IMG/VR virus record: IMGVR_UViG_2671181012_000022
Length of the DNA stretch: 42,877 nucleotides
Reading direction: 5' to 3' (one strand)
Source of the DNA: a virus
Taxonomy: Duplodnaviria; Heunggongvirae; Uroviricota; Caudoviricetes
This document shows positions 27,001 to 30,000 of the stretch, one piece after another (position 1 is the stretch's first letter; each line of letters opens with the position of its first letter). A program made the position numbers.

Positions 27001-30000
27001 GTGTGGTTGACCTCTGTGACAGTGAACTCGATCACCGAATTGCACTTCAGTTCGGTGGTGGTAATGAGGAGACGAATCTCTGGACGCTCTGTACCGAATG
27101 CCATCGACAAAAGTCTGTTCGTGAAGCGGCGAGTGGTATGCCGGACCCGACACTGCCGGAGGTGTCCGGAGGTAGTGGCAGAGCGGACGACATCATCGGA
27201 CTGTAACCCGACCCGGGGGGGTATCATCCGGCGTAAAAAACTATCGCTCCGGACACCGCGCCCCCTCTCACGCAGAGAAAAAATTCCCGTTTCAGGGCAG
27301 TTAACATGTTAACTGGCTGCCCGGGCATTTTTGCGGTTTTTATCTTTATTATTCAGTTTGTTGCGTGGAAAAAATGTTAACAGGCTTTTTCAGCAAATGT
27401 TAACCAGGCAGCAGTTAACATTTGCGGCATGAGACGCCGGGAAAAATGGGCTGAACCATACCCGGCTGAGTGCGTTCTGGACCCGGGAGGAGGCTGTGCT
27501 GACAACGCAAAAACGAAAATTTGCGCTGGCGCTCATGTCCGGGAAAAACAAAACAGCGTCAGCCATTGCCGCCGGTTATTCGGCGAAGACAGCCAGGGTT
27601 AAAGGCTCGCAGCTGGCAAAAGATCCGGAGGTGCTTGCGTTTATAGCCCGTAAACAGTGCGAGACGGTGGAGGTGGATGAGGTTCCTGTTTACCGGCAGA
27701 AAAAATCAGAGCAGGAGGATAAACCCCGTCGCCGTGAGGCGGCTGCAATACCACAGCCGGACGAAACAAATCCGGAGATGCCACCGCCCGTGGTGATATC
27801 TCCTGGTATTGAGTATATGGAGGACGGTCTTCCCGATCCGGTGAAAGCGATGGGGCGTCTTCTGGTGGAGAACATTAATACCGACCCCAGGCTGGCGCTG
27901 GATGCGGCTTATAAGCTGGCGCAGTTCACGCACCACAAAAAAGGGGATGCCGGTAAAAAATCGGCAAAAGGTGACGCGGCGAAAAAAGCGGCTAACCGTT
28001 TTGCGGTGCCACCACCACCCCGACTGGTGGTGAATAATGATAATGAGGGCAACGGATGATACCTGTGTGGAGCACGGCCTGCCCGGACTGGGCAGAGCGC
28101 CTGAAAAAGGGGCTGTCGATTATTCCGGCTCCGATTTATCCGGAGCAGGCCGCACATGCCCTGGCGATTTTTAAACAACTGCGGATTGTGGATGCACCGG
28201 GCAGCCCGACGTTCGGGGAGTCCTGTGCACCGTGGGTGTTTGACCTGGTGGCGGCCCTGTTTGGCTCCTACGATGCGCAGAACGGTGTACGCCATATCAA
28301 GGAAGTTTTTATCCTTATCCCGAAAAAAAACAGCAAGTCCACGCTGGCTGCCGGGATCATGATGACGGCGCTGTTACTGAACTGGCGGCAGGCGGCGGGC
28401 TACACCATTCTGGCCCCGACCGTGGAGGTGGCGGCTAACGCCTTTAATCCTGCGCGGGATATGGTCAGACGTGACGATGATCTGGATGACCTCTGCCAGG
28501 TACAGACACATATCCGGACCATCACCCACAGGGTGACGGACACCACCCTTAAGGTGGTGGCAGCCGATCCGAATACGGTGTCCGGTATCAAGTCTGTGGG
28601 GACACTGATTGATGAACTGTGGCTGTTTGGCAAGCAGTACAAAGCGGAGGACATGTTACGTGAAGCCATCGGCGGGCTTGCCTCCCGCCCGGAAGGGTTT
28701 GTGGTGTATACGACCACCCAGTCGAATGAGCCGCCAGCCGGGGTGTTCAGACAGAAACTGCAGTACGCCCGGGATGTCCGTGACGGCAAAATTCATGATC
28801 CGCACTTTCTGCCGGTGATATTTGAGCATCCGCCGGAGATGGTGGAGCGCGGTGAGCACCTGCTGATGGAAAACCTCGCCATGGTCAATCCGAATCTCGG
28901 TTATTCGGTGGATGAGGCTTTTCTGTACCGGGAGTACCGTAAAGCCCGGGAGGCTGGTGAGGAAGCATTTCGTGGCTTCATGTCAAAACATGCCAATGTG
29001 GAAATTGGTCTTGCCCTGCGTTCTGACCGCTGGACGGGTGCGGATTTCTGGGAGCAGCAGGGCAGGCGCGTCAGCCTGGACGATATCCTGCAGCGCGCTG
29101 ATGTGGTGACGGTGGGGATTGACGGCGGGGGCCTGGATGATCTGCTGGGAATGTACGTGATTGGCCGTGACAGGGAAACCCGCGAATGGCTGGGCTGGGG
29201 CCATGCCTGGGCGCATGAAACCGCGGTGGTCAGACGGAAGAGTGAGGCATCCCGGTTTCAGGATTTTGTGGCCTGTGGAGACATGACGATTGTCCGTCGG
29301 GTCGGGGATGACACGGCGGAAGTGGCGGAGTATGTGCGTCGTATTCATGAGGCTGAGTTACTGGAGCATATCGGTATTGACCCGTCAGGTGTGGGGCAGA
29401 TTCTGGATTCACTGGTGGAAGCCGGGATCCCCGACGGAATTGTTGTGGGGATAAGCCAGGGCTGGAAGCTGGGCGGGGCCATAAAAACCACCGAGCGCAA
29501 ACTGGCTGAGGGAGTACTGGTGCATGGTGGTCAGCCACTGATGGCCTGGTGCGTTGGCAATGCCCGGGTGGAGCCGAAAGGTAACGCCATCCTTATTACC
29601 AAACAGGCCAGCGGACGGGGGAAAATTGACCCGCTGATGGCGCTCTTCAATGCGGTATCCCTGATGTCCCTGAATCCGGAGCCGAAAAAGAAAGAATATG
29701 CGGTTTTTTTCATATAACCCTGTTCACCCTGTAACCATCATGGACCGCTGCGGCGGTTTTTTTATTTTCAGGAGGCTGATGTGACTCTTAAACGGGCCTG
29801 CTCCCTGCTGACGGTGAAATCCTTCAGTGAGGATGAGCGGGTGATCACCGGGATTGCGTCAACGCCTTCTCCGGATCGGGATGGTGACATCCTGGAGCCG
29901 GAGGGCGCGGAGTTTGGCAGTGCGATCCCGTTTCTCTGGCAGCATGACCATTCCCGCCCGGTGGGGCAGTGTACGGTGCGCCGGGTCAGCGAAGGGCTGG

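Follow-up and report, generated by a model that had tools for sequence, protein, structure and literature searches.

A probable HK97-type cos region with a candidate small-terminase docking array in a lambdoid Escherichia coli prophage

What is a cluster of five TGTTAAC repeats doing in the 289 bp that separate the gene of an HNH endonuclease from terS, the gene of the small terminase subunit? The arrangement is found in a 42,877-bp stretch of Caudoviricetes DNA (IMG/VR record IMGVR_UViG_2671181012_000022), the whole of which is referred to here as the window and which represents an E. coli prophage of the long-tailed type of the Shiga toxin (Stx) phages (BP-4795, 2851, 1717 and Lys8385Vzw). 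Two things have to be clarified at this locus, namely where the packaged chromosome would be cut and which protein would read the repeats. Taken together, the segment 27212-27495 probably serves a lambdoid prophage as its cohesive-end (cos) region; the packaging module would be of the HK97 type, assisted by the HNH protein, and would carry a cosB-like array for the small terminase (TerS), and the five repeats are, judging from the comparison of related loci, most likely docking sites of TerS.

The heptamer ATGTTAAC occurs at 27300 (-), 27306 (+), 27374 (+), 27397 (+) and 27414 (-), all within 27300-27421, and the sole further copy in the window lies at 12206. In the null model, 100 dinucleotide-preserving shuffles of the whole window, the mean was 1.05 copies per window and none of the 100 shuffles reached six; from this mean, by our own arithmetic, five copies in 122 bp compare with a Poisson expectation of ~0.003, which corresponds to a probability of the order of 1e-15. 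Count, shuffles and gene calls confirm what an earlier note on this DNA had pointed out, five such repeats including a perfect palindrome between the HNH and terminase genes, and the GC-rich stretch that it had described in front of them is present as CCCGGGGGGG at 27212-27221. Copies 1 and 2 make up the primary site (27300-27313, without strand), a perfect palindrome GTTAACATGTTAAC with full arms CAGTTAACA and TGTTAACTG, centred 40.5 nt to the right of the predicted cut. Copy 3, AAAAATGTTAACA, occupies 27374-27381 (+) and is invariant in L174 and L168, two related loci with upstream copies of their own. Copies 4 and 5 (27393-27425, without strand) form a perfect 12-nt inverted repeat, GCAAATGTTAAC-N9-GTTAACATTTGC, which is kept in L174. 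The array as a whole spans +34 to +155 from the predicted cut. The spacer between sites 2 and 3 (27314-27373, without strand) is rich in T-tracts (T5, T5, T3, T3, then A6); its A/T-tract phasing score is in the 98th percentile of the window, with phased T-tracts at 27328-27359, and this spacer is probably intrinsically bent. Elsewhere in the window, two GTTAAC hexamers 8 bp apart (GTTAACCAGTTAAC) were noticed at 4418-4431 (+), within an open reading frame (ORF) at 4271-4741; this pair is probably a coincidence that has no relation to cos.

The position of the cut can be read from relatives whose chromosome ends are mapped or deposited. Lys8385Vzw, a Stx1 phage induced from Stx-producing E. coli, was assigned by PhageTerm to the cos phages, with 3' cohesive ends CGCCCCCCCT (PMC7946995). 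At the cos region it is ~98% identical to the window, its gene order matches (record MT225100), and it carries the same five repeats; the record ends ...GGACACCGCCCCCCCT and restarts with CTCACGCAGAGAAAAAATTCCCG... (longer: CTCACGCAGAGAAAAAATTCCCGTTTCAGGGCAGTTAACATGTTAAC...), a junction that corresponds to window 27257-27266 on one side and 27267 on the other. For the Acinetobacter phage fEg-Aba01, an HK97-type 10-nt 3' cohesive end, CGCCCCCCAT, was determined by PhageTerm and by a restriction-fragment gel after heating or annealing (PMC7354433); its record ends ...GGACACCGCCCCCCAT and starts CGCACGCACAAAAAAAATTCCC, and the aligned position is again the predicted cut of the window. The linear record of the Burkholderia phage Bcep176 has an identical 10 nt at both termini, which in the multiple alignment fall exactly on window 27257-27266 and are followed by CTCACGC. 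A 10-nt end is thereby found at the aligned position in all three relatives, and for two of them, Lys8385Vzw and fEg-Aba01, a 3' overhang has been reported. Because the three ends align there, the C-rich decamer CGCGCCCCCT at 27257-27266 (+) is predicted to be the 10-nt 3' cohesive end, equivalent to cosN, which would place the first base of the packaged chromosome at 27267 (CTCACGC...). The expectation of the earlier note that the cohesive-end site is nearby is thereby supported; the run of G residues in the stretch that it had highlighted is ruled out as the cohesive end, the mapped ends lying 35 nt further right. Other records contributed little: that of phi330 opens inside terS and is uninformative on ends, the Burkholderia vB_* records begin ~27 nt before terS and not at cos, and a BLAST search of the compact cos module (described below) against the phage collection retrieved no additional end-mapped phages. 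As a separate observation, the isolate-genome-derived IMG/VR contig L030 (IMGVR_UViG_2681813226_000009) begins TCTCACGCAGAG (TCTCACGC), one base from the mapped cos end, as might be expected if the culture that was sequenced contained linear phage DNA.

On either side of the predicted cut, the core of the cos region is deeply conserved. On the left, a G7 run (27215-27221, +) is situated 35 nt from the overhang; nearly all aligned relatives have G6-G9 here, at equal distance from the overhang from E. coli to Burkholderia and Acinetobacter fEg-Aba01. That the run might serve as a cosQ-like termination element, or as a contact for the large terminase (TerL) or for the HNH protein as second nuclease, is speculation. 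On the right, the segment CTCACGCAGAGAAAAAATTCCC (27267-27299, +), with the pattern CTCAC..CAGAAAAAAT conserved from E. coli to Burkholderia, includes an A6 tract at 27278-27283. Adjoining it, the window has CAGGGC where the compact relatives described below have GGAGGG, that is, a decayed ancestral ribosome-binding site of terS. Two further observations concern this core. In the PPompW prophages, the IS110-family insertion sequence ISEc20 is inserted in the cos G-run and the HNH gene has been lost; in locus L178 (LC567822, a PPompW prophage; 1146-2604), the insertion is at approximately window 27218, with G-runs at both junctions, and the lysis genes are gone together with the HNH gene between the Q/tRNA region and cos. 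This suggests that ISEc20 targets G-runs and that these prophages are defective in packaging. In L002 (2833-2840) and other compact relatives, GTAAACAT, a variant of the left half-site, is also present ~28 nt to the left of the cut, its counterpart in the window being the degenerate GTAAAAAAC at 27233-27241; judging from these motif matches, TerS-type sites may exist on both sides of the cut.

The proteins encoded around the array match such a module. Directly upstream of cos lies the gene of a 121-aa HNH endonuclease (26841-27206, +; Pfam HNH PF01844, E 1.5e-6), a putative packaging nuclease whose gene would form the right end of the chromosome in the virion; in most relatives, too, an HNH gene immediately precedes the cos core, and in a few loci it is absent from that spot. 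Downstream, terL (28056-29717, +) encodes a 553-aa large terminase of the HK97 class (Pfam TerL_ATPase and TerL_nuclease, PF03354 and PF20441), whose sole match among solved structures is HK97 TerL (6Z6D, E 1.6e-9). HNH-assisted packaging, as proposed earlier, is supported by both the adjacent HNH gene and this exclusive match. Between cos and terL, terS (27496-28059, +) starts with GTG CTG ACA and encodes 187 aa with a match to Pfam Terminase_2 (PF03592; 35.7 bits, gathering cut-off 26.1). Three parts can be distinguished in TerS: residues 1-55 form a helix-turn-helix domain of the SF6 type, a disordered linker follows, and the C-terminal domain is helical. Profile comparison matches its N-terminus to the SF6 DNA-binding domain (4ZC3/2CMP/3ZQP, E 4e-4 to 2e-3), and in the AlphaFold model residues 1-55 have pLDDT values >90, form helices 4-14, 19-25, 33-41 and 44-55, and superimpose on 4ZC3 with a TM-score of 0.84 and a root-mean-square deviation of 1.6 A at 30% identity.

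How the repeats may have arisen is suggested by loci that encode more distant TerS relatives (31-49% identity) in Atlantibacter, Enterobacter, Kluyvera, Erwinia, Serratia, Pantoea, Citrobacter, Buttiauxella, Pseudomonas, Burkholderia and Janthinobacterium. Their usual layout is an HNH gene, a G6-9 run, ~34 nt, and then GGACACCGCGCCCCCT/CTCACGCACAGAAAAAATTCCCCTCTGGAGGGTGTAAAC followed by ATG TTA ACA. In this compact form, ATGTTAAC comprises the start codon of terS together with the Leu and Thr codons, GGAGGG is the ribosome-binding site, and the near-palindrome GTAAAC/ATGTTAAC of ~20 enterobacterial relatives has its centre at a distance of 40.5 nt from the cut, the same position as the palindrome of the window; the isolated Salmonella phage FSL SP-016 is of this form. 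A scan of IMG/VR for the cos core returned two forms only, the compact one with terS at +39 and an expanded one, in which terS is found at +227 to +230 and GTTAAC occurs at +34, +42, +110, +133 and +148, shifted by 1-2 nt in a few variants. Every relative with the cos core has a GTTAAC-type site at +34/+42, the position of the palindrome being filled by TGTTAA..TTAACA in beta- and gammaproteobacteria and by GTTACAC in satellites. The palindrome at +34 represents the ancestral site, its homologue in compact relatives being the region of the terS start, and copies 3-5 are part of a lineage-specific expansion of ~190 bp that most relatives lack. This expansion, which would have added the three copies after the ancestral ATGTTAAC, was probably a duplication of the 5' end of terS; it would have displaced terS downstream, with decay of the old ribosome-binding site and acquisition of a new one, GGGAGGAGG, and of a GTG start. 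From the ancestral terS ATG to repeat copy 3, a 24-codon hydrophobic ORF (MLTGCPGIFAVFIFIIQFVAWKKC; 27306-27380, +) remains visible. It was considered as a conserved peptide and rejected: the ORF of L174 has the same length and, by our own count, the two differ by 13 nonsynonymous and 1 synonymous changes, from which it follows that spacing is kept here rather than a peptide.

Such an origin invites the reading that only the ancestral palindrome at +34 is functional and that copies 3-5 are, like the ~190-bp insert, neutral relics of duplicated terS 5' ends. The flanks of sites 3 and 4 (ATGTTAACAGG and ATGTTAACCAGGCAG) indeed resemble the terS starts of relatives, for example ATGTTAACAGGGCAG in L100, and the compact relatives, one of them an isolated phage, do without copies 3-5. 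The pattern of conservation argues for the opposite. Of 70 distinct close IMG/VR variants, 69 retain every one of the five copies, and the expanded variants all have their additional copies at the same places, +110, +133 and +148, apart from the small shifts given above. Between the window and L174, whose TerS is 68% identical and which has seven copies, 37 of 38 motif positions are identical, compared with 99 of 180 (55%) in the rest of 27290-27495 (Fisher P = 5e-8); sites 2 and 3 lie 68 bp apart in either locus, with no insertion or deletion in the spacer, which has diverged in sequence yet is still rich in T-tracts. Moreover, similar expansions have occurred independently in Giesbergeria, in the satellite L172 and in L174. 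We therefore regard neutral relics as unlikely. In a further relative, L165 (Logan SRR15221294 contig, 20-60; TerS 69% identical), the counterpart of sites 4 and 5 reads ATGTTTAC...GTAAACAT; the same A-to-T change is present in both arms of this inverted pair, the visible part of the array being limited by the contig edge.

The codons that overlap the motif in compact relatives indicate that the DNA element itself has been maintained. In GC-rich Pseudomonas, Burkholderia and Janthinobacterium, codon 3 of terS is TTA, which makes up TTAACA; in four of the seven loci (L104, L105, L107 and L108) this is the sole TTA among the ~67 Leu codons of terS and terL, and the other three have two to four TTA codons. 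The first half-site, TGTTAA, overlaps the ATG in another register in beta- and gammaproteobacteria (TGTTAATGG..TTAACA), which shows that the motif is not bound to one reading frame. In lineages with upstream copies (the window, L168, L174 and L165), CTG replaces the TTA codon, and the same exchange took place independently in Giesbergeria L106, which has a palindrome ATGTTAAAGCTTTAACAT at +33 plus two GATGTTAAA copies. In the distant phage fEg-Aba01, a related motif is present: three AAGTTAAA repeats at +33 to +63 precede ATG GCA TTA ACA.

The overlap with the start codon could also mean that the repeats control terS, either as operators for repression by TerS or another protein or as a hairpin in the 5' untranslated region, and are not packaging signals. 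Besides the palindrome covering the terS start codon in compact relatives, folding of the 244-nt RNA between the cut and terS is mildly better than that of shuffled sequences (z-score -2.56), and there is the 12-bp inverted repeat of sites 4 and 5. A fold signal of this kind is, however, expected from any set of self-complementary GTTAAC copies, and the extended complementarity of the arms is explained by the common consensus AAATGTTAAC, which is present in direct copies too. The scan revealed no convincing promoter, one promoter-like match on the minus strand being made of two motif copies, and no terminator, and there was no Rfam match at E values up to 1. In the expanded form, the sites are 75-195 nt upstream of the new start, yet at fixed distance from the cut. 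Control of terS as the sole function is hence quite improbable; it would be compatible with a role in packaging, and an additional autoregulatory role in the compact form is possible.

Which protein would read the motif is suggested by satellites. In four types of E. coli islands resembling phage-inducible chromosomal islands (PICIs), the encoded TerS homologues (P0053, P0056, P0061 and P0085) have W or Y in place of S38, which is part of the sequence KGSQL and belongs to helix 3 of the model. The islands retain the cos core (G-run, GGACACCGC..CTCA.., A-tract) and carry (AAAA)GTTACAC at +31 to +41 instead of TGTTAAC. The number of copies is one in L175 and L177, two in L166 and four or more in L172, where the T-rich spacer is in addition expanded to ~228 bp. 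In three of the four island types, gene calling in the 1.5-2.5 kb retrieved per side gave neither an HNH nor a TerL gene, so that TerS is the component that changes with the motif. These islands resemble satellites that give a new address to packaging on HNH-type helper phages. The other genes at these loci (L166/L167, 1372-1501; L172/L173; L175/L176; L177) encode AlpA, a D5_N or AAA_25 primase, PerC, HigBA, a type I restriction-modification system and a capsid-like protein. With position, deep conservation, codon usage and the co-variation with the helix-turn-helix, the comparison of sequences supports the suggestion of the earlier note that the repeats are TerS-binding sites.

Alternatively, the cleavage complex could be positioned at the repeats by another binder, candidates being the HNH endonuclease, TerL and nucleoid proteins of the host. 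HNH and TerL do co-occur with the motif in phage lineages, and HK97 TerS binds nearer the cut, where its site has an A-tract comparable to the conserved one of the window (PMC11331095). The satellites, however, change the motif together with their own TerS and keep the cos core, which is presumably used by the TerL and HNH of the helper, most of them without HNH or TerL in the flanks just described, and the region has no consensus site for the integration host factor (IHF); we consider another binder very unlikely. Finally, that the repeats are clustered HpaI/HincII-type targets of restriction-modification, for example for the methyltransferase of the prophage, can practically be dismissed: GTTAAC is the HpaI site, a gene for an N6/N4 methyltransferase lies 2 kb upstream and the hexamer occurs 16 times in the window versus 7.5 expected, yet with the cluster removed the count is an unremarkable 11 versus 7.5, conservation exceeds the hexamer, extending to (A)ATGTTAAC, ATGTTTAC, GTTAAA and GTTACAC fill the same position in relatives, and the methyltransferase context is missing there.

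TerS docking at a cosB-like array could operate in the following manner, drawn by analogy with lambda cosB and the SF6/SPP1-type small terminases. The helix-turn-helix domains of a ring-shaped TerS oligomer would bind the five (A)TGTTAAC copies between +34 and +155, and the T-tract spacer would let the DNA curve around the ring, anchoring TerL beside the cut. TerL, aided by the HNH protein, would then nick at 27256/27266, leaving the 10-nt 3' overhang CGCGCCCCCT, and packaging would run rightwards from 27267. In this scheme, we infer TerS as the binder, the bending of the DNA and the relevance of the extra copies for packaging. Several points weigh against it. Most functional relatives, such as the isolated phage FSL SP-016, manage with a single palindromic site, and copies 3-5 may for this reason be dispensable. 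The site of HK97 TerS is at +15 to +29 and includes an A-tract (PMC11331095), and the A6 tract of the window (+12 to +17) could be the real TerS contact, the fold of HK97 TerS being a different one, though. No match to the IHF consensus (WATCARNNNNTTR) is present in the region, and the T-tract phasing is at the 98th percentile only. Lastly, the co-variation of S to W/Y with TGTTAAC to GTTACAC represents one or two evolutionary events.

A more general scheme, which is put forward tentatively, would be a two-part, evolvable packaging signal across Proteobacteria. A fixed cos core, composed of G-run, 10-nt cut and A-tract, would be read by TerL and HNH, and a separate 'address' at +34 by TerS. 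This address would usually reside in the first three codons of terS, could be copied into an upstream array, freeing the start codon, and could be re-addressed by satellites (S38W/Y together with GTTACAC) to divert TerL, HNH and capsids of the helper.

Further genes flank the locus. Upstream are the DNA methylase gene (24149-25084), which is the phage N6/N4 methyltransferase referred to above, Rz with an embedded Rz1-like ORF (25081-25548), a gene for a TonB_C-domain protein (26126-26467) and a DUF3950/YlcI-like gene (26599-26859, -). Downstream of terL, a single 645-aa ORF (29781-31718, +) encodes a prohead protease (Peptidase_S78) fused to the major capsid protein (Phage_capsid); a protease-capsid fusion is likewise reported for Gifsy-2-like heads (PMC12315714).

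The element is of an ordinary kind and a clear example of it. For Lys8385Vzw (PMC7946995) and fEg-Aba01 (PMC7354433), the 10-nt overhang has been published, without repeats, G-run or TerS site. A full-text literature search on GTTAAC with small terminase and cos yielded nothing relevant on the repeats or their relation to TerS, both of which are new within the literature searched. The assignment would locate the packaging signal of medically relevant Stx-converting and related prophages and help to judge which prophages remain packageable, for instance PPompW with its insertion sequence in the cos G-run and its lost HNH gene; it would also provide a defined fragment for work with cos plasmids or on transduction. 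To our knowledge, very little is known on how SF6-type TerS proteins read DNA in cos/HNH systems, and the compact, expanded and motif-changed satellite forms constitute a natural series for this question. The satellite forms also suggest that the piracy of lambda-type PICIs, same cut site and different cosB, acts on HNH-type phages as well.

How does this cos region compare with known packaging systems? The cos site of lambda consists of cosN and cosB, the latter with the sites R3, R2 and R1 bound by gpNu1 and a bend introduced by IHF. As in lambda, repeats in both orientations, here putative recognition sites of TerS, and a bendable spacer are situated between the nick site and terS. In contrast to lambda, the overhang of the relatives is a 10-nt 3' and not a 12-nt 5' extension, TerL is of the HK97 class and not gpA, with an HNH partner present, TerS has an SF6-type helix-turn-helix and not the winged helix of gpNu1, phased T-tracts are found instead of an IHF consensus, and the primary site overlapped the terS start codon in the ancestral state. 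Differences in overhang, terminase and IHF site alike place the region outside the lambda cos family. The parallel extends to satellites: EcCICFT073 retains the lambda-type nick site and alters cosB (PMC6739421), and the islands described here likewise keep the nick site and have a changed cosB-like motif.

With SPP1 and SF6, the window shares the TerS family of G1P and the N-terminal DNA-binding fold (4ZC3, with the TM-score given above). The TerS proteins of these phages recognize several short repeated boxes on bent DNA. SPP1 and SF6 package by the headful mechanism (pac) and are without an HNH partner, whereas the relatives of the window have defined cohesive ends. HK97 has gp74 as its HNH protein, a TerS site at +15 to +29 and a 3' overhang of 10 nt; its TerS, of another fold family, threads a single 15-bp site through the central channel (PMC11331095). 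The window resembles HK97 in the HNH gene beside cos, the TerL class, the 10-nt 3' overhang of its relatives and the A-tract just right of the cut, and differs in a Terminase_2/SF6-like TerS with repeated GTTAAC candidate sites at +34 to +155. The cos sites published for Lys8385Vzw (PMC7946995) and fEg-Aba01 (PMC7354433) have the same core as the window, with the overhang at the position predicted here.

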